NCBI GenBank assembly: GCA_963796455.1
Contig: CAWCLO010000002.1
Coordinates: 96,001-160,000 of the forward strand
DNA length: 64,000 bases
Origin: Candidatus Sulfomarinibacteraceae bacterium
GTDB lineage: Bacteria > Acidobacteriota > Thermoanaerobaculia > Thermoanaerobaculales > Sulfomarinibacteraceae
Direction: 5' to 3'
Within the stretch, counting starts at the first letter, position 1; each line of letters begins with the position of its first letter. The notes beneath the pieces were generated by a model. It was not told the origin of the DNA and did no database searches. It saw only the letters and a program-made list of their open reading frames with translations. The position numbers and the translations under genes are program-made. Shown here piece after piece: positions 11,901 through 25,156 of the stretch.

Positions 11901-12665
11901 GTGAAAAGATCAGAGCTCCAGGAAATATTGCGGGCGGTAGCAGCCGGTGACATCAAGGCCGATGCCGCGCTCGAGAGCGTGCTTGCACAGGGAGTCGAAG
12001 ATCTCGGTTTTGCGCGGCTCGACACCGATCGCGAACGTCGCACCGGGATGGCCGAGGCGATCTTTGCGCCCGGCAAGACGGACGAACAGCTGACGCTCAT
12101 CGTTGATCGGTGTCTCGAGATGCACCACAAGGTGTTGGTGACGCGCGTCGAGAGAGATCGTGTCGGAGCATTGTTGGAACGCCATCCGGAGTTGCGCTAT
12201 CACTCCGTTGGCCGAATCCTCGAGGCACGGCCGGAGGCGGAGCCTACGGGCAAGCCGGTCGCGGTGGTTTCCGCCGGGACTTCCGATCTCCCGGTGGCCG
12301 AGGAAGCGGCGCTGGTCCTCGAACATCTCGGCCACCCGGTCGACCGCGTCAACGATGTCGGAGTGGCGGGGATCCACCGTCTCTTCTCGGTCCTCGAACG
12401 GCTCCGCCGTGCCCGCGTCCTCGTGGTCGTTGCGGGGATGGAAGGCGCGCTGCCATCGGTGGTCGCGGGTCTGGTGGAGTGCCCCGTGATCGCGGTGCCG
12501 ACCTCGGTCGGTTATGGCGCCAGCTTCGGTGGCGTGGCGGCCCTGCTCGGGATGCTGAACTCCTGTGCCGCCGGCATCAGTGTGGTCAACATCGACAACG
12601 GTTTTGGCGCCGCCACGGTGGTGCATCGTATCGCTCGCATCGACGGTTCCGGAGACGACGAATGA
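11901..12665 (+). CDS. larB: Nickel-pincer cofactor biosynthesis protein LarB
   Basis: AGTSDLPVAEEA, DVGVAGIHRL, AGMEGALPSVV, PTSVGYGA and VVNIDNGFGAA. GTG start with GGAGG. Confidence 0.93.
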   Translation: MKRSELQEILRAVAAGDIKADAALESVLAQGVEDLGFARLDTDRERRTGMAEAIFAPGKTDEQLTLIVDRCLEMHHKVLVTRVERDRVGALLERHPELRYHSVGRILEARPEAEPTGKPVAVVSAGTSDLPVAEEAALVLEHLGHPVDRVNDVGVAGIHRLFSVLERLRRARVLVVVAGMEGALPSVVAGLVECPVIAVPTSVGYGASFGGVAALLGMLNSCAAGISVVNIDNGFGAATVVHRIARIDGSGDDE

Positions 12666-13852
12666 GCAGGCGGCTTCTTTACCTCGACTGTGCGGGCGGG
12701 GCCGCGGGGGACATGATCCTGTGCGCCCTGGCCGAAGCCGTTGGCGACGTGTCGCTGGTGGAGAACCTCCCGGAGCGGCTCGGGTTCCCGGATGTCACCC
12801 TCGAGTGGCCGGCCGGAAAACCCGGCGGGTTTGCCGCGCGCCGCCTCAATGTTCGCTTCGATCCCGCAAAACACCCCCACCATCGAAATCTCGCGGATGT
12901 GGTCAGTCTTCTGGAAGCTGCCGATGTGTCGCCGACAGCTATCAAAATGGCGCGGGCGGTTTTCGAGCGTCTTGCCGAGGCCGAAGGCCAGGTCCACGGT
13001 GAGCCCGCCGACCAGGTCCATTTCCATGAAGTCGGCGCAGTCGATGCGTTGATCGACATTCTCGGCGCCTGTCTCCTGCTCGAGCGACTGGCGGTGGACG
13101 AGGTCGTTTGCTCGGTGCTGCCGATGGGTCACGGTACGGTGGCCTGTGCTCACGGCGAACTGCCCTTGCCGGCACCGGCGGTGGCCGCCATGTTGCCCGG
13201 TGTGCCGGTGCGCGCAGTCGAAATCGAAGGCGAGACCGTCACCCCGACCGGCGCCGCCTTGGTCACGACGCTCGCCGATCACTTTGGTGCGATGCCGGCC
13301 ATGACGGTTGAAAAAATTGGAGTCGGTGCGGGATCGAGAGAGTACCCGGGTCTGCCGAACGTGGTCCGCGCCTTTGTCGGTTCGGCGGCAACGCCCACTG
13401 AAATCGAACGCAGCGACAACCTGGTCATCGAGTGCAATATCGACGATCTCGACCCGAGGGTGTTTCCGGTCGTGATCGATAATTTGCTTGCCGCCGGCGC
13501 TCTCGATGCTTATGTCACTCCGCTTTTGATGAAGAAGGGGCGGCCGGGTCATTTGCTGACGGTCATTTCGACGGCCGCTTCCGTCGAAGGCCATATTGAT
13601 TTGATTCTGCGCGAGACGACCAGTCTCGGGTGCCGCACCTATCCGGTCAGCAAATACCATCTGCAACGGCACATGGAGATGGTCGCCACGCCCTGGGGCC
13701 AGGTGCCGGTGAAGGTCGCTCTGGCCGGCGACAAGGTGCTTCGAAGAGTCCCGGAATTCGAACCCTGCGCCGCGCTGGCCCGCGAAACCGGCGTACCCCT
13801 GCGCGACATCCTCGCCGCTGCCGGCGGTGTGCCCGATAAGGAATCCGAATGA
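12662..13852 (+). CDS. larC: Nickel-pincer cofactor biosynthesis protein LarC
   Basis: GAAGDMIL, VHFHEVGAVDALIDI, TPTGAAL, ECNIDD and MKKGRPG. ATGA overlap with larB. Confidence 0.93.
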   Translation: MSRRLLYLDCAGGAAGDMILCALAEAVGDVSLVENLPERLGFPDVTLEWPAGKPGGFAARRLNVRFDPAKHPHHRNLADVVSLLEAADVSPTAIKMARAVFERLAEAEGQVHGEPADQVHFHEVGAVDALIDILGACLLLERLAVDEVVCSVLPMGHGTVACAHGELPLPAPAVAAMLPGVPVRAVEIEGETVTPTGAALVTTLADHFGAMPAMTVEKIGVGAGSREYPGLPNVVRAFVGSAATPTEIERSDNLVIECNIDDLDPRVFPVVIDNLLAAGALDAYVTPLLMKKGRPGHLLTVISTAASVEGHIDLILRETTSLGCRTYPVSKYHLQRHMEMVATPWGQVPVKVALAGDKVLRRVPEFEPCAALARETGVPLRDILAAAGGVPDKESE

Positions 13853-14673
13853 TGGCTGATTACGATGGGTTGTTGCAGTGGTTCCGCGACTCCGGTTCGG
13901 CCCTGGTGGCCTTCTCGGGAGGCGTCGATTCGACGCTCCTGGCCAGGATCGCCTTCGAGGCGCTCGAGGACCGGGCTGTTGCAGTCACTGCGGTGTCGGC
14001 CTCCCTGGCGCCCCGTGAGCTCGACGAGGCGCGGCAGCTGGCGGCACAGATCGGCATCAACCACCGACTCGAGACCTCCTCCGAAACCGCCAAACCCCAG
14101 TATCTGGTCAACGACGGGGACCGCTGTTACCACTGCAAATCGGAGCTCTATTCGATCTGCGAAAAAGTGGCCCGCGAGATGGATCTGGCGGTGATCGTCA
14201 ACGGCCTCAACACCGATGATCTTTCCGATCACCGGCCGGGAAACAGGGCCGCCGAAGAGGCCGGGGTGCGATCGCCCTTTGTCGACTTCGGCTTTGACAA
14301 GACTGCCATCAGGGAGCGCTCCCGCCGCTTCGGCCTTCCCACCGCTGCAAAACCGGAATTGGCCTGTCTCGCGTCTCGCTTTCCAACCGGAACACCGATC
14401 ACGATCAATGGTCTGGAGCGTGTTGCTGCGGCCGAAGAAGTGGTGGCGGCGCTCGGTTTTTCGCAATACCGGGTCCGCTTTCACGGCGATCTGGCGCGCA
14501 TCGAGGTGCCGGGCGCCGAGATCGATCGTTTGTCCGACCCGTCGCTTCGCGGTCGTCTGGTGGCGGGCGTCAAGGATGCCGGTTTCCGGTTTGTGACGGT
14601 GGATCTCGCCGGGTATTCGCGGGGCTCGTCGAATCCCCTGGCGATGGCGCGGGATGGAGGTGAGCGGGGCTGA
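13849..14673 (+). CDS. larE: ATP-dependent sulfur transferase LarE
   Basis: AFSGGVDS PP-loop, RCYHCK, DHRPG, ACLASR and RVRFHGDLARIEV. Confidence 0.92.
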   Translation: MMADYDGLLQWFRDSGSALVAFSGGVDSTLLARIAFEALEDRAVAVTAVSASLAPRELDEARQLAAQIGINHRLETSSETAKPQYLVNDGDRCYHCKSELYSICEKVAREMDLAVIVNGLNTDDLSDHRPGNRAAEEAGVRSPFVDFGFDKTAIRERSRRFGLPTAAKPELACLASRFPTGTPITINGLERVAAAEEVVAALGFSQYRVRFHGDLARIEVPGAEIDRLSDPSLRGRLVAGVKDAGFRFVTVDLAGYSRGSSNPLAMARDGGERG

Positions 14674-19206: not shown

Positions 19207-20364
19207 TCAGAAGGTACCGCGGAGCACGGTGGTTCCGTCGGACACCGCCATCCTTCCCCGCGCCATCAGATGAACGAATTCCAGATCGTCGTTGAAAAAG
19301 ATCAGATCGGCATCGGCGCCGGCCGCGACCCGTCCCTTGTGGTCGAGGCCGTAAAACCGCGCCGGGTTGGTGGAGAACAGGGCGAGCGCCCGCCGGAGAT
19401 CGAGGACGCCGTTGCCGACGATGAGCCGCAACTGTTCGAGCAGGGTTTTCTGGTTGGCCACATCGAGGCGTTCGAGATTTCCATCCCGGTCGAAAACCGG
19501 CAGGCTTCCGTTACTGTCGGAGCTGACACTGATGTTTTCGAGCGGAGCGCCGGCCTCTACTGCGAGCCGAACGGCCGCCTCGACGGTCATCGACGGGGCA
19601 TGGCTTCCGATCCCCGAAGTGAGATCGATGCGCCCTCCCTCGCGGGCATATTCAAGGGCCTGGTCGAGCAGCAATGGGTTGCGGTTGCAGTGGGTCGGGA
19701 TGATCTGGGTGATCGGGATTTCGGTCTCGTGAATGATGCGAAAGACCAGCTCGAGACCCCGCGAACCGTCTCCCAGGTGGAGGTGGAGGATCCCCGGTTT
19801 GCCGCCGAGCATGCCTCCGACCCGGCACTCGGCGGCAAGATGCGCCAATTGGTCGAACGTCGGTTGTGAAGAACGATGATCGGAGATGGCGATCTCGCCG
19901 GCGCCGAGCACCGACGGCAGGAGTGCGAGATCGGAGCGAACGTTTCCCGTCAGGGTCTGTACCGGGAGTTCGTAGGAACCAACGTAGACATAGGCCGAAA
20001 TGCCCTCCTGCACGAGGCCACGGGCCTTGGCCATCAGGGAACTCTGATGGCGCGTGACCCCGTCGGTGCCGAGGCAGCCGATGACTGTGGTCACTCCGCT
20101 CGTGACGATGTCTTCGATCCGGATTTCCGGGGCGCGCGTGGCCGGCCCGCCCTCGCCGCCGCCTCCGGTGAGGTGGAGGTGCGAGTCGACCAATCCGGGT
20201 GCGACCCTGAGACCCGAGGCGTCCATCTCCTCCACCTCGAGACCTGTGACCGTGATCTTCCCCGGCAAGGCCAGCGCGGCGATTTTCTCGCCGGCAATCA
20301 GAATATCGCGCACACCATCGGTCTCGTGATCGAGAATCGCCGCGTTTCGAATCAGCGTGAGCAT
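19207..20364 (-). CDS. iadA: Isoaspartyl dipeptidase (beta-aspartyl peptidase)
   Basis: DSHLHLTGGGGEGG, GCLGTDG, EIAISDHRSSQP and SSDSNGSLP. Start at MLTLIRNA. Confidence 0.93.
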   Translation of the reverse strand: MLTLIRNAAILDHETDGVRDILIAGEKIAALALPGKITVTGLEVEEMDASGLRVAPGLVDSHLHLTGGGGEGGPATRAPEIRIEDIVTSGVTTVIGCLGTDGVTRHQSSLMAKARGLVQEGISAYVYVGSYELPVQTLTGNVRSDLALLPSVLGAGEIAISDHRSSQPTFDQLAHLAAECRVGGMLGGKPGILHLHLGDGSRGLELVFRIIHETEIPITQIIPTHCNRNPLLLDQALEYAREGGRIDLTSGIGSHAPSMTVEAAVRLAVEAGAPLENISVSSDSNGSLPVFDRDGNLERLDVANQKTLLEQLRLIVGNGVLDLRRALALFSTNPARFYGLDHKGRVAAGADADLIFFNDDLEFVHLMARGRMAVSDGTTVLRGTF

Positions 20365-20383
20365 GGCTTCGGCCTCCTGATTC

Positions 20384-21774
20384 TCAGCAAGAGATCGGTT
20401 CGAAGTGGCAGGTGAAATGACGCAGGAGTCGCTCTGCGCTCGTGATGCGGTGGCCGCCGGAATCGCCACCCGGTCGCGCCACACCTCCTCGATGACCTCG
20501 ATCAGATAGTCGAAGTGGCTCTGGGTATAGACCCGGCGGGGAAATGCCAGGCGAACCAGCTCGAGCGGTGACGGTTGTTCGTTGCCGTCTTCGTCGAAAT
20601 GGCCGAACATCACGCTGCCGAGCTCGACGGCGCGGACGCCGCCCGCCAGATAGAGGGCGTTGACCACCCCGATGCCCGGGTAGTCGAGTTGCGGGATGTG
20701 CGGGCAGCATCGCGCGGGCGTCGAGAAAGACCGCGTGGCCGCCGGCAGGGCGCACCATCGGCACGCCGAGCGTGGTCAGCTTCTTCGACCATGTACTCCA
20801 CCGTGGCGTGGCGGTAGACCTGGTAGTCGTAGTCGAGCGCCTCCTGGAGACCGACCGCGATCGCTTCGAGGTCGCGGCCCGCGAGCCCGCCATAGGTGGG
20901 GAAACCCTCGCGCAGGATCAGCAGGTTGCGGAAGCGCTCGGCCCACTCGTCGTTGCGGCAGACCAGAAAGCCGCCGATGTTGGCGAGACCGTCCTTTTTG
21001 CAGCTCATGGTGGCGCCGTCGGCGAGCGAGAACATCTCCTGTGCGATCTCCATCAGCGGCCGGTCGCGGTAGCCGTCCTCCCGTTCGCGCACGAAGTAGG
21101 CATTCTCGGCAAAGCGGCAGGCGTCGATGATGAGCGGAATCCCGTGCTCGGCCAGGACCGCCTTGACGGCGCGTGAGGTTGGCCATCGAGACCGGCTGGC
21201 CGCCGCCGGTGTTGTTGGTGACCGTGACCATGGCGAAAGGGATCTTTTCGCGTGCCGTGCTCGGCGATGCAGGCGCGCAGAGCGTCCACATCCATGTTGC
21301 CCTTGAAGGGCGCCGCGGCCTGGGTGTCGAAGGCCTCGGCGCAGGGCAGGTTGAGAGCGGTCGGCTCCGCGGTACTCGATGTTGGCGCGGGTCGTGTCGA
21401 AGTGGCTGTTGTTGGGGATGACATCGCCGGGCTTCGACGATGCACTCGGCGAGGATGCCCTCGGCTGCACGGCCCTGGTGGGTCGGCAGGATGTGTGGCA
21501 TGCCGGTGATCTCGCGCGACCGCTGGCTTCGAAGCTTCTTCCACGACCGGCTGCCGGCGTAGCTCTCGTCGCCGAGCATCATGGCCGCCCACTGCTCGGT
21601 GGACATCGCGCCGGTGCCGCTGTCGGTCAGGAGGTCGATGCAGCAGTCCTCGGCGTCGAGCAGGAAGACGTTGTGATGGGCCTGGCTTCAGTGCCGCCAC
21701 CCGTTCCTCGGCCGAGTGGTGATCTTGAGGGGTTCGGTCATCTTGATGCGGAACGGTTCGATGATGGTGCGCAT
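20384..21774 (-). pseudogene. tnaA: Tryptophanase with at least 9 frameshifts, probably sequencing errors
   Basis: Joined frames give EPFRIK, DLLTDSGT, GDESYAGS, PTHQGRAAE, HFDTTRAN, MSCKKDG (PLP lysine), EGFPTYGGLAGRD, RLAFPRRVYT and LRHFT. Confidence 0.85.
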
Positions 21775-21877
21775 GGTCTCCTCCGGCGTGCAGGGTAACG
21801 GTTTTTTCAAACCGGGGGAAGCCGCGGACGTAATATGTAGAGTGCCCGCTCGATACTGTCGCGCGAAAGGACCATTG

Positions 21878-23263
21878 ATGTTTCCAACCACGACCTACCT
21901 CAGTCGTCGCGAGATCCTGAAGACCCGTTTCGAAGGCGGGCTGCTGCTCTTCCTCGGCAACAATGAAAGCCCCATGAACTATCCCGACAACTGCTACCCC
22001 TTTCGCCAGGACAGTTCGTTTCTGTATTACTTCGGTCTCAACCAACCCGAGTTGGCCGCGGTGATCGATATCGACCAGGACCGTACGGTGCTTTTTGGTG
22101 ACGAACTCACGATCGATCACATCGTGTGGATGGGGGACCTGCCCACGGTCTCCGAGCGCGCCGCTGACGTGGGAATTACGGACACCCGACCCCGGGCGGC
22201 CCTGGTCGAGGTGGTCAAGACGGCGATAGCCACCGGTCGTCCGGTTCACTATCTCCCTCCCTATCGGGCGGACAACTCGATTCTCCTTTCCGGGCTTCTC
22301 GGTTTACCCCTCACCGGGCTCGCCGATGGTGCTTCCCTCGATCTCGTCAGAGCCGTGATCGACCAACGATCGTCCAAGAGCGAAGAGGAAGTCGCCGAAC
22401 TGGACCGGGCCGCGAACATCTCGGTGGACATGCACGTCACAGCGATGCGGATGGCGCGACCGGGAATGATGGAAACCGAGATCGCAGCCGAGGCCGAGCG
22501 GGTTGCGGCCGCTGCTGGAGGCCGGATTTCTTTTCCTGTGATCGCCACCATCCACGGCGAGACCCTCCACAACCACTTCCACGGCAATGTTCTCTCTGAC
22601 GGCGACCTCTTTCTTCTCGATTGCGGCGCCGAGACCGCCATGGGTTATGCGGGCGATCTATCGTCGACCTTTCCGGTGAGCCCGGAGTTTTCCGAACCGC
22701 AAAGGATCATCTACGAGCTGCAGCTCGCGGCCTACGATGCCGCAGTATCGAAACTTGCACCCGGTGTTCCGAATCGCGAGGTGCACTTTGCCGCGGCCCG
22801 CGTCATCGCCGAGGGCATGAAGGATCTCGGGTTGATGAAAGGGAATATTGACGACGCCCTCGCCAATGGAGCGCACGCCATGTTCTTTCCCTGCGGCGTG
22901 GGTCACATGATGGGTCTCGACGTCCACGATATGGAGGACCTCGGCGAGGTGTGGGTCGGTTATGGCGGTGAGGCCAAGAGCACCCAGTTCGGCCTCAAGT
23001 CCCTTCGGCTCGGGCGCGAACTCGAGGCGGGCTTTGTGGTGACCATCGAACCTGGGATCTACTTCATTCCCCAGTTGATGGATCTCTGGCGTTCCGAGGG
23101 CCGCTGCGCCGAATATCTCGACTTTGATGCCCTGGATGCGTGGCGGGACTTTGGCGGCATCCGCAACGAGGAGGACTATCTGATCACCCCTGACGGCGCC
23201 CGCCGCCTCGGCAAGGCGAAACCGCTCCGAATCAACGAGGTCGAAGCGCTGCGAAAGGCTTGA
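21878..23263 (+). CDS. pepP: Xaa-Pro aminopeptidase (M24B)
   Basis: YPFRQDSSFLY, LLDCGAE..GYAGDLS, GHMMGLDVHD, TIEPGIYF and GGIRNEED. Confidence 0.9.
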   Translation: MFPTTTYLSRREILKTRFEGGLLLFLGNNESPMNYPDNCYPFRQDSSFLYYFGLNQPELAAVIDIDQDRTVLFGDELTIDHIVWMGDLPTVSERAADVGITDTRPRAALVEVVKTAIATGRPVHYLPPYRADNSILLSGLLGLPLTGLADGASLDLVRAVIDQRSSKSEEEVAELDRAANISVDMHVTAMRMARPGMMETEIAAEAERVAAAAGGRISFPVIATIHGETLHNHFHGNVLSDGDLFLLDCGAETAMGYAGDLSSTFPVSPEFSEPQRIIYELQLAAYDAAVSKLAPGVPNREVHFAAARVIAEGMKDLGLMKGNIDDALANGAHAMFFPCGVGHMMGLDVHDMEDLGEVWVGYGGEAKSTQFGLKSLRLGRELEAGFVVTIEPGIYFIPQLMDLWRSEGRCAEYLDFDALDAWRDFGGIRNEEDYLITPDGARRLGKAKPLRINEVEALRKA

Positions 23264-23361
23264 TCCGGTTTGCCTCCGGGAGGCTTTGTCGATCGAATGA
23301 CTGAGGCATTCGGCCGGGTGGCGTATACTGAGTCGAAATCTCGACACAAATGGAGGCCGCA

Positions 23362-24051
23362 ATGTTCGCGAAGGTCTTTCTGATTGTGCTCGCTTTGGTG
23401 ATGGTGGTCGCGGCGTGTGCCTTCTTCTATATCGGTCCGAGAAACGTGATCGGTGTCCTCACCTATGGCCGGCAGGCGCGCGATGGCGATCTCCAGGTCG
23501 GGGATGCCATTCCGACGGTGAGCGTCGTCGCCCTCGATGGCGAGAGCCAACGAGAACTGAGCGAGTGGATCGGGATGCGACCGCTGGTTCTCGTCTTTGG
23601 CAGCTTCACCTGACCACCCTTCCGGCGCTCGGTCGAGCGCGTGGACCAGATCAGAACCCGTTTTGAAGACCGTGCCGAGTTTCTGACCGTGTACATCAAA
23701 GAGGCCCACCCGGAAGACGAGTGGCAGATGACCGTCAACGAAGATCAGGGAGTTTGCTACACCCAGCCCCAGACCCTCGCCGATCGGGTGCTGATCGCCA
23801 ATGATTTCAGCGAGCGTTTCGAGTATGCGATGACACTTGTGGTGGATCCGATGGAAAATCCGGCCGAGGAGGCTTTTGCCGCCTGGCCGGAACGACTCTA
23901 TGTCGTTGGGTCGGACGGCCTGATCGCCTACAAGGGCCGCAAGGGCCCCTTTGGTTTCGATCCGGATGAACTCGAGCGTTGGCTCGAGGAGAATCTGCCG
24001 CCCGCGGGGGAGATCGAATCGACCCCGGAAGCGGCGGCGGCACCCTTCTAG
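23362..24051 (+). CDS. Iodothyronine deiodinase-like selenoprotein (TGA 23611-23613 read as Sec), 229 aa
   Basis: ORFs 23350..23613 and 23641..24051 share a frame. Readthrough gives RPLVLVFGSFT-U-PPF...FLTVYIKEAHPEDEW...AWPERLYV...KGPFG. N-terminal TM helix and GGAGG RBS. Confidence 0.88.
23621..23645 (+). promoter_or_regulatory. Bacterial SECIS-like hairpin
   Basis: TCC-G-GCGCTC-[GGTC]-GAGCGC-GT-GGA; the G-starting apical loop begins 17 nt after the UGA. Confidence 0.7.
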
Positions 24052-24061
24052 CGGCGAGATC

Positions 24062-25156
24062 TCATCCGAGCCGGACGCGGTAGCGGAGGCGGGCAAAGGT
24101 GATGATGATGGTGGCCAGACCGATCAGAGCGAGGGCCTCGGGCCACAGGACCTCGAGACCCGCCCCTTTCAAAAACACGCCGCGCAGGATGGTGATGTAG
24201 TAGCGCAGAGGAATCGCGTACGAGATCCACTGAAAAATCTGCGGCATGTTCTGGATCGGAAAGACGAAACCCGAGAGATAGATCTGCGGCATCATCACGA
24301 CAAAGGTCGAGATCATCATCGCCTGTTGCTGGGTGCGCGAAAGGGTCGAGACCAGCAGTCCGAAACCGAGACAACAGACGATGAAGGGCGCAGTCAGCAG
24401 GCAGAGAGTCCAGAAGGCGCCTCGAAGAGGAACCTGGAACCAGAAGAGTACAACCGTCAGCGCTGTCAGGAACTCGACCACCCCCACCAGTGCATAGGGC
24501 ACCAGTTTGCCGGCGATCACGGCGCTCGGCGTCAGCGGCGTGACCAGGAGCTGCTCCATGGTGCCGATTTCTGTTTCGCGCACGATGGCCATGGAGGAGA
24601 GCATCATGGTCATGATCAGGATGATCAAAGCGAGCACCCCGGGGACCATGTAGTAGCGGCTCAGGAGATCCGGGTTGTAGAGCACCGTTGGCCTCAGCTC
24701 GAGCGGCAACCGCGCTCCTTCCGAATCGGCGGCCGTTTGCAGGACCCCCTGGGCGTAGGCGAGACCGACGGTCCCGATCATTGGGTCCGAGCCATCAGCC
24801 ACGACCTGGATTCTGGCGCTCCGGCCCGCTTCTTTATCGGCTGAGAATCCGGCGGGTATGGTCACCGCGACCCGGGCATCACCGCTCGCGAGCCACGGGT
24901 CGAGTTCGTCCTGGGTGTCGACCGTGGCGACCTGTCGAAAATAGGTGGACGCGCCGAAGCTCTCGAGGAGCTGACGGCTCAGGGGCGACCGGTCGAGGTC
25001 GCAGACGGCAAGTTCGACCATTTTGATGTCGGTGGTGGCGGCATAGGCGAGGAGGGTCAGCTGAATGACCGGGGCGACAAAGAGCACTGAGAGTGTCTTG
25101 GGATCGCGCTTGAGCTGAATGAGCTCCTTCACCAGCATGTTCAAGAGCATTCGCAC
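24062..25156 (-). CDS. ABC-2 type permease (YbhR-like)
   Basis: KELIQLKRD, YNPDL and IVRETEIGTMEQLLVTP. Confidence 0.9.
   Translation of the reverse strand: MRMLLNMLVKELIQLKRDPKTLSVLFVAPVIQLTLLAYAATTDIKMVELAVCDLDRSPLSRQLLESFGASTYFRQVATVDTQDELDPWLASGDARVAVTIPAGFSADKEAGRSARIQVVADGSDPMIGTVGLAYAQGVLQTAADSEGARLPLELRPTVLYNPDLLSRYYMVPGVLALIILIMTMMLSSMAIVRETEIGTMEQLLVTPLTPSAVIAGKLVPYALVGVVEFLTALTVVLFWFQVPLRGAFWTLCLLTAPFIVCCLGFGLLVSTLSRTQQQAMMISTFVVMMPQIYLSGFVFPIQNMPQIFQWISYAIPLRYYITILRGVFLKGAGLEVLWPEALALIGLATIIITFARLRYRVRLG

Follow-up and report, generated by a model that had tools for sequence, protein, structure and literature searches.

The stretch of DNA analysed here (the window) comprises 64,000 nucleotides of contig CAWCLO010000002.1 from Candidatus Sulfomarinibacteraceae bacterium. 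Its forward strand, on which all features of the gene are located, carries at 23362-24051 a deiodinase-like gene encoding 229 amino acids with a predicted selenocysteine (Sec) at position 84, as judged from a profile match, alignment to the animal deiodinases Dio3 and Dio2, a conserved TGA and the predicted fold. The frame is composed of 83 codons, an in-frame TGA at 23611-23613, which is the putative Sec codon, 145 further codons and a TAG at 24049-24051. The start at ATG 23362 was preferred to ATG 23350 because a Shine-Dalgarno-like GGAGG is placed at 23352-23356, 5 nt upstream of the former. An ORF lister breaks the gene at the TGA into ORFs of 87 and 136 amino acids. An earlier note on this DNA had described two in-frame ORFs parted by a single TGA; its coordinates are exact, the TGA being codon 84 of one 229-residue gene, and the segments it had read across the TGA (RPLVLVFGSFT-U-PPF, YIKEAHPEDEW, AWPERLY and GPFG) are all present in the readthrough product. 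The 136-residue C-terminal half exists as a protein entry in public collections, and 99 of 111 database matches span at most 59% of the joined protein, most of them having the size of that half. Since most matches are of half length, Sec forms are under-represented in protein collections. At the level of the gene the consequence is an annotation correction, in which two apparent fragments become one gene.

The gene is located 98 nt downstream of a Xaa-Pro aminopeptidase gene and is convergent with an ABC exporter operon. The nearest relative, in an Acidobacteriota MAG, is 70% identical; its locus likewise has the aminopeptidase P upstream (77%) and ABC permease genes close by, which makes an acidobacterial host probable. 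Near-identical DNA is present in sediment metagenomes. Neighbours vary among the related loci; within related genomes M24, M16 and M20 peptidases, amidohydrolases, Nramp, a two-component pair and DUF2127 recur. No conserved partner gene, dehalogenase or ring-cleavage family was found among 44 cluster representatives plus 100 of the 137 flanking ORFs that had been picked heuristically. A conserved operon or a halogen-metabolism context, not found among these ORFs, was consequently rejected, and gene context does not give the substrate. The genome to which the window belongs (5.02 Mb, 90.5% complete) has one PF00837 gene and no reductive dehalogenase over the cut-off, the best match reaching 130 bits against 160. 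That partial match, at C1:756273-756887 on the minus strand within a 456-residue frame, may represent a QueG-like protein or a divergent cobalamin protein with Fe-S clusters. A promoter and terminator scan of 21500-24300 gave results near chance level. Elsewhere in the window, a gene of the tryptophanase/tyrosine phenol-lyase family at 20200-21700 (minus strand), divergent from the aminopeptidase P gene, contains many frameshifts and overlaps an intact isoaspartyl dipeptidase gene at its start, indicating local assembly error or decay; no match to it was found near the other 72 loci. Genes larC and larE for nickel-pincer cofactor biosynthesis are placed at 12665-14673 (plus strand). Mammalian mu-crystallin binds thyroid hormone, and a gene of the ornithine cyclodeaminase/mu-crystallin family is positioned downstream on the opposite strand in four related loci (L069:3498-4472, L080:9290-10882, and also L070 and L072), which is probably synteny among kin. 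In L015, L016, L021, L038, L039, L043, L046 and related loci, a gene for a DUF2127 membrane protein is situated downstream of the deiodinase-like gene and convergent with it, its cluster reaching up to 20 loci.

The assignment to the deiodinase family made in the earlier note was borne out by both profile and fold. The joined protein matches PF00837 with 136 bits (E 1.7e-39, cut-off 27), the halves alone scoring 17.5 and 92.5 bits. Its only sequence matches in the PDB are mouse Dio3 and Dio2, and in both alignments U pairs with the residue that was changed from Sec to Cys. The AlphaFold2 model, built on a 52-row alignment, has a pLDDT of 90.9, and its best structural matches are again Dio2 and Dio3 (Z 22.5, rmsd 2.6-3.2, 172-175 residues aligned), with the next entries (SdbA, Bcp, DsbE and Tpx) at Z 16.4 or below. 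NCBIfam NF038285 is matched with 188.5 bits over model positions 177-338 of 347, under its 250-bit cut-off. The family is large, comprising 4285 clusters at E<=1e-10 in a profile search that possibly includes some other Trx folds. The lineages of the relatives' MAGs include many of soil type as well as marine ones.

Several observations indicate that the UGA is almost certainly decoded as Sec. The set of loci comprises 73, that is, 72 relatives and the locus of the window, and one of the 73 does not cover the TGA site; the catalytic column is TGA in all of the 72 that do. Homologs with a residue other than Cys or Sec at this site had been named in the earlier note as an argument against a selenoprotein; besides the 72 TGA codons, 128 of the 153 domains taken from relatives called intact have Cys in this column. 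The lack of a Sec machinery had been named likewise, and selA, selB, selC and selD are all in the genome: selA (475.6 bits), selB (317.4 bits) and selD (347.8 bits) score over their curated cut-offs, and the tRNA-Sec matches RF01852 with 76.4 bits. A putative bacterial SECIS hairpin is situated at 23621-23645, its upper stem of 6 bp being formed by 23625-23630 with 23635-23640 and its loop, GGUC, occupying 23631-23634, 17 nt after the UGA. The hairpin agrees with the bSECIS model as outlined in PMC13188914, which places G in the first two loop positions, a stem of 4-16 bp and a distance of 16-37 nt from the UGA. Covariation in the hairpin, calculated on 39 of the 72 loci and inflated by related sequences, is 0.265 against 0.126 in shuffled alignments, the observed value being reached in 0 of 500 shuffles and lying above all slid controls. 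Of the 72 loci, 57 have a stem of at least 5 bp with a loop starting in G at 15-18 nt, as do only 243 of 5978 control positions (4%). Synonymous codon choice in the hairpin is constrained as well, Ser being TCG in 52 of 54 cases (background 34%), Val GTC in 56 of 58 (61%) and Arg CGC in 51 of 57 (48%). No Rfam entry falls within the locus of the gene. In a sample of the phylum, PF00837 is matched in 37 of 301 genomes, and 32 of the 36 matches over the cut-off hold one TGA (G024 included, the position of the TGA being unchecked). All 29 tested genomes with a one-TGA match, a set that left out the window's own genome and G024 and whose members are kin and not independent, contain selA, compared with 234 of 301 overall. 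Four of the genomes behind five related loci have selA, and the fifth is a small draft.

The opposite reading would make the TGA a genuine stop codon, an error of sequencing or the lesion of a pseudogene, the ORFs on either side then being distinct genes or no longer functional. It finds some ground in the frameshifted tryptophanase-family gene, which points to assembly errors or decay close by. Moreover, contigs from 4 sequencing runs do not span 23574-23743, the stretch that holds the TGA, and a contig of a near relative from an RNA run covers 23778-24012, which is not evidence of transcription. Hairpin stability alone was rejected as evidence for Sec since it is not diagnostic: its z score is an unremarkable -0.6 to -1.3, and across the genome 10620 of 99702 TGAs have a loose hairpin after them. 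Against it stand the TGA at the catalytic column of 72 loci from independent genomes, the synonymous constraint in the hairpin, the presence of selA in every tested one-TGA genome of the phylum and the complete Sec machinery of the genome itself, so that this reading is very improbable and the selenoprotein call of the earlier note holds. Six more genes in the genome are candidates for UGA-encoded Sec and have a hairpin downstream, at C1:356707(+), C1:471309(-), C4:602301(-), C4:219925(+), C4:458690(+) and C7:105182(+); their motifs are UPVC, WUPLC, PGUGHC, WUPFC in two peroxiredoxin-like genes and CYPU in an AhpD-like one. The genome appears rich in selenoproteins, Sec redox proteins included. 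In a related locus, selA lies 240 nt downstream of the deiodinase-like Sec gene (L075:6801-8237, minus strand).

The N-terminus contains a hydrophobic helix at about residues 5-24 (23374-23433), a putative anchor or signal, with a hydropathy of 2.94 and a helix at 2-24 in the model, in agreement with the membrane anchor proposed earlier. Such a helix, preceded by basic residues, is found in 61 of 72 loci, with means of 2.36 Lys plus Arg and 0.02 Asp plus Glu before it. In these 61 the net charge before the helix is higher than that after it in 46, equal in 5 and lower in 10, the window protein being among the equal cases (1 and 1). A crude signal-peptide filter was passed by 73 of 150 wider relatives, and EF-hands are present in 42 and TPRs in 6 of 89 scanned. 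Because of the basic-flanked helix, the signal-peptide-like relatives and the EF-hand fusions, the catalytic domain is likely exported. A lipobox-like VAAC (Cys19) within the helix occurs in 2 of 72 loci only, and a lipoprotein reading was rejected on this lack of conservation.

The catalytic domain reproduces most of the animal deiodinase active site. In the alignment to mouse Dio3, the motif S81-F82-T83-U84-P-P-F (23602-23622) corresponds to S167-C168-T169-U170, the deiodinase-specific loop (23692-23769) keeps Y111, E114, H116 and W121 with P136 in place of His219, and W175-P176-E177-R178 (23884-23895), forming pocket wall and floor, corresponds to Y257-F258-E259-R260. Hence Dio3 residues S167, T169, Y197, E200, H202, W207, E259 and R260, with roles in the deiodinase pocket described in PMC7506546, PMC9141512 and PMC11592359, are all matched. 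S81, T83, Y111, E114 and H116 are invariant in the 72 loci, and W121 (70), E/D177 (69) and R178 (70) are nearly so. Four residues are replaced: Cys168 by Phe82, Cys239 by Met157, His219 by Pro136 and Phe258 by Pro176. The Phe in place of Cys two residues before Sec, to which the earlier note had drawn attention, is real but not special, since this position is Tyr in 38, Phe in 29, Cys in 4 and Trp in 1 of the 72 loci, and Ala in Dio2. It is Tyr in family members from amphioxus and a soft coral. Neither the proximal nor the distal Cys is universal in animals, given the Ala of Dio2 and the amphioxus protein with Tyr at -2 and without the distal Cys. In human DIO1, according to PMC9141512, deiodination itself is independent of the proximal Cys, which serves re-reduction.

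The loss of His219 is the clearest difference between the bacterial and animal proteins. Pro stands at this site in 70 of the 72 loci; of the 153 wider domains, 119 have Pro and 7 have His, while His is present in 7 of 7 animal sequences examined; the H174A (His-to-Ala) mutant of human DIO1 remains active, as reported in PMC9141512. E177 is characteristic of the clade and rare beyond it, with 17 Glu and 14 Asp among the 153 wider domains. That Pro176 speaks against deiodinase activity was considered and dropped because Dio1 also has Pro at the Phe258 site, where it opens the pocket (PMC11592359). Pro176 and the frequent Lys193/Pro194 of the clade resemble Dio1, described in the same source as the most permissive isoform.

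Compared as a whole with Dio1-3 (mouse Dio3 4TR3/4TR4 and Dio2 9H48), the window protein has the same fold, at Z 22.5 and 35-36% identity in the structural alignment, and in common with them an N-terminal membrane helix, S-x-T-U-P-P-F, the Y..EAHP.D.W loop, the Glu-Arg pocket floor and a G-K-GP turn, and with Dio1 specifically the Pro at the Phe258 site. It differs in having neither the proximal Cys168 nor the distal Cys239, in the Pro for His219, in an extra Cys132 and in a SECIS inside the coding region. Animal deiodinases face the cytosol, whereas its catalytic domain is probably exported. The Cys-type proteins of amphioxus (XP_035687791.1) and soft coral (XP_028392231.1) also carry an aromatic residue, Tyr, at -2; the former, 36% identical to the window protein over 194 amino acids, also resembles it in the Pro at the Phe258 site and in being without Cys239. 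Unlike the window protein, both have Cys for Sec, keep His219 and do not have Cys132. A 2011 study reports that a non-selenoprotein of amphioxus, possibly XP_035687791.1, deiodinates triac.

Because both Cys used for recycling in animals are missing, the Cys residues of the catalytic domain were surveyed. Only one other Cys exists in this domain of the window protein, Cys132 (TGC, 23755-23757), which is the candidate resolving residue. Exactly one Cys is found among sites 82, 132, 149 and 171 in 71 of 72 loci, the remaining locus being truncated, and its position is 132 in 55 loci, 149 in 6, 171 in 6 and 82 in 4. The equivalent of site 82 has been proven to act as the resolving Cys in DIO1 (PMC9141512), and helix alphaD, where site 149 is located, houses the resolving Cys of PtGPX5 (PMC7506546). 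In the 128 Cys-form domains recovered by profile search, Cys149 is present in 95 and a Cys in the next column in 11, and 125 have at least one extra Cys. Among 158 rows, Cys149 is absent in 33 of the 35 with an alternative Cys compared with 16 of the 123 without, both being present in 2 of the 35. A lineage test of this exclusivity, with few independent lineages, gave 4 supported pairs, 2.7 in the same way and 0.1 in the opposite way, with a median p of 0.25. A second Cys is missing from P0168, P0172 and P0175, which are close relatives in the Cys form. As read from the alignments, the exclusive pattern somewhat favours a resolving Cys that moved among sites, in the window protein to Cys132. 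What is new here is the presence of one extra Cys at one of four mutually exclusive sites; neither the loop Cys nor the four sites were encountered in the literature search, though supplementary family alignments may show the loop Cys.

Prokaryotic deiodinase-like proteins in Sec and Cys forms have been known since 2005, when Zhang, Fomenko and Gladyshev described four Sec sequences and expected a different function for bacterial members (PMC1088965). The GOS data of 2008 contain 22 deiodinase-like selenoproteins (PMC2398784), and a 2026 catalogue lists the family as still uncharacterised, with the motif UxxC (PMC13188914). A literature search, outside which most of the subscription literature lay, found no functional study or activity data on any bacterial member. 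The window protein shares with this bacterial family PF00837, the UGA at the catalytic residue, a downstream bacterial SECIS and Cys homologs; in contrast to the catalogued UxxC, it has SFT-U-PPF, and its second Cys follows 48 residues later, within the deiodinase loop. Loop and pocket motifs are shared also with the NF038285 'deiodinase family protein' and the Cys forms fused to EF-hands or TPRs, from which it differs by being without the first 176 model positions and without EF-hands, and by having Cys132 and not the alphaD Cys149. By every feature examined, the gene is a member of the bacterial deiodinase-like family and not of the animal deiodinase group, though it may work like one. A FastTree of 175 domains put its clade with animal and probable microbial-eukaryote sequences (support 0.976), and a quick IQ-TREE did likewise. 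In a careful tree of 81 rows, however, the backbone is unresolved, the grouping occurs in 263 of 1000 bootstrap trees, and a branch (100/99) separates the 7 animal-type rows from the rest, among which is the window protein. The proposal that, among bacteria, animal deiodinases have their nearest relatives in this clade is hence unsupported, as is any special kinship to them, and we make no claim of ancestry.

Taking these features together, we tentatively propose, by analogy with the animal enzymes, a membrane-anchored, outward-facing enzyme that would remove iodine, or reactive bromine, from small aromatics at Sec84 in the manner of a deiodinase and be reset via Cys132. In the model, SelB would with near certainty read the hairpin 17 nt downstream and insert Sec. 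The N-terminal helix would quite probably anchor the protein with its N-terminus in and its C-terminus out, leaving the domain in the periplasm. The selenolate, positioned by T83, Y111, E114 and H116, might then take the halogen as X+, a proton replacing it, as in animal deiodinases. Subsequent attack of Cys132 on the oxidised selenium would, rather plausibly, give a selenenylsulfide. A DsbD-fed thiol relay may perhaps re-reduce it; the genome encodes a DsbD domain in a 598-residue frame, and this homolog could be the electron source. Iodinated aromatics from degraded protein in sediment are plausible substrates, and the halogen-bond energetics given in PMC12025243 favour iodo over bromo compounds and make chloro compounds unlikely. 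The earlier note had suggested a possible reductive dehalogenase for iodinated or brominated aromatics. In favour of this reading we count the PF00837 score, the Dio2/Dio3 fold, the invariant pocket residues, the Dio1-like Pro176, the activity of DIO1 H174A, the animal family members with Tyr at -2, the one-extra-Cys pattern, the charge bias around the helix in the clade and the DsbD domain; against it, the different function expected in 2005, the Pro for His219, the rarity of E177 in the wider family, the failure to find a dehalogenation gene context among the ORFs scanned, the soil-type and marine lineages of the relatives, the small number of independent lineages behind the Cys exclusivity, the close Cys-form relatives without a second Cys and the even charge balance of the window protein itself.

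The same Sec84/Cys132 cycle could instead serve an envelope antioxidant of the atypical 2-Cys peroxiredoxin or GPx type, acting on peroxides, hypohalous acids and halamines or sulfenylated targets, the scaffold having later been co-opted by animals for thyroid hormone. We regard this as a close rival, possible if on the doubtful side. Bcp, Tpx, PtGPX5 and TlpA/ResA have the Trx fold and the Prx-like N-terminal module in common with the window protein (Z 15-16.4), the Bcp/Tpx/AhpE peroxiredoxins and TlpA-like proteins being the next-best folds at Z 15-16, and in proteins of the Bcp, Tpx and PtGPX5 type one catalytic residue is combined with a distant second Cys, as would be the case here with Cys132. 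The prevalence of a second Cys in helix alphaD of the Cys-form domains, the resolving-Cys helix of PtGPX5, points in the same direction, as do the great size of the family and its frequent EF-hand or TPR fusions, the missing proton-relay His of animals and the apparent wealth of Sec redox proteins in the genome. Single loci adjoin MsrB, AhpC/TSA or ferritin-like genes, but these redox neighbours are singletons. Pfam Redoxin is matched with 17 bits against a cut-off of 26.6, and an AhpC-TSA match is not listed. The peroxiredoxin motif is PxxxT/SxxC, and the window protein has its Ser at -3 but Leu at -7 where Pro is expected. Moreover, the residues found invariant belong to the pocket specific to deiodinases; relative to the Prx, GPx, TlpA and ResA proteins, identity in structural alignments is 10-21%, there is no UxxC, Pfam cut-offs are unreached and the deiodinase loop is present.

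An anchored thiol-disulfide oxidoreductase resembling TlpA/ResA, in which Sec84 would attack envelope proteins, agrees with the architecture of an N-terminal anchor plus a Trx domain, with the structural neighbours SdbA, DsbE and ResA (Z 15-16.4) and with the DsbD in the genome. Pro176 occupies what we take to be the thioredoxin cis-Pro site; Pro is kept there in 70 of the 72 loci and, in the wider family, in 151 of 153 domains, although Dio1 too has Pro there (PMC11592359). The motif is nevertheless U-P-P-F, not UxxC or CxxC, in 72 of 72 loci, the large conserved loop forms a small-molecule pocket in Dio3 (PMC7506546), and no cytochrome-maturation or Dsb neighbours were found among the scanned ORFs, so that we consider such an activity quite unlikely.

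Returning to the deiodinase-type reading, its broadest form, a widespread, database-invisible sediment and soil clade with an exported, cofactor-free selenoenzyme that deiodinates aromatics and has its selenium resolved by a substrate-loop Cys, is unlikely to be right in all its parts. If true, it would provide a bacterial route of organo-iodine turnover, and the resolving Cys of the deiodinase family would have changed place between no fewer than four sites, which include the CxU position of animals. A deiodinating activity would be relevant both to the cycling of organo-iodine and to how thyroid-hormone metabolism originated, and the protein would inform how deiodinases without the proximal Cys are re-reduced. 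This member makes the question of the family's function, posed since 2005, testable, as it is a compact single-domain protein with a sharp prediction of a Sec84-Cys132 bond. A close natural Cys-form relative, P0153, with 59% identity and the loop Cys, can be expressed without Sec machinery.

Some variants of the domain were observed in the wider family. Fusions occur in P0002, P0003, P0027, P0016, P0047, P0081, P0084 and P0113, the partners being a tandem duplicate with a degenerate second copy, a ceramidase N-terminal domain, a CMD/AhpD-like domain, TPR, a carboxypeptidase-regulatory domain and BNR. The catalytic position is Ser or Ala in P0005, P0043, P0071, P0074, P0091, P0115 and P0148, mostly without a second Cys, and these are possible non-catalytic, ligand-binding forms. 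Trp stands at the Sec column in the database proteins P0093, P0117, P0131, P0136 and P0154, several of which have the loop Cys; they are probably gene calls under a code in which UGA is Trp. Four of the five are without an anchor, lie on contigs of about 1 kb and may be from microbial eukaryotes.
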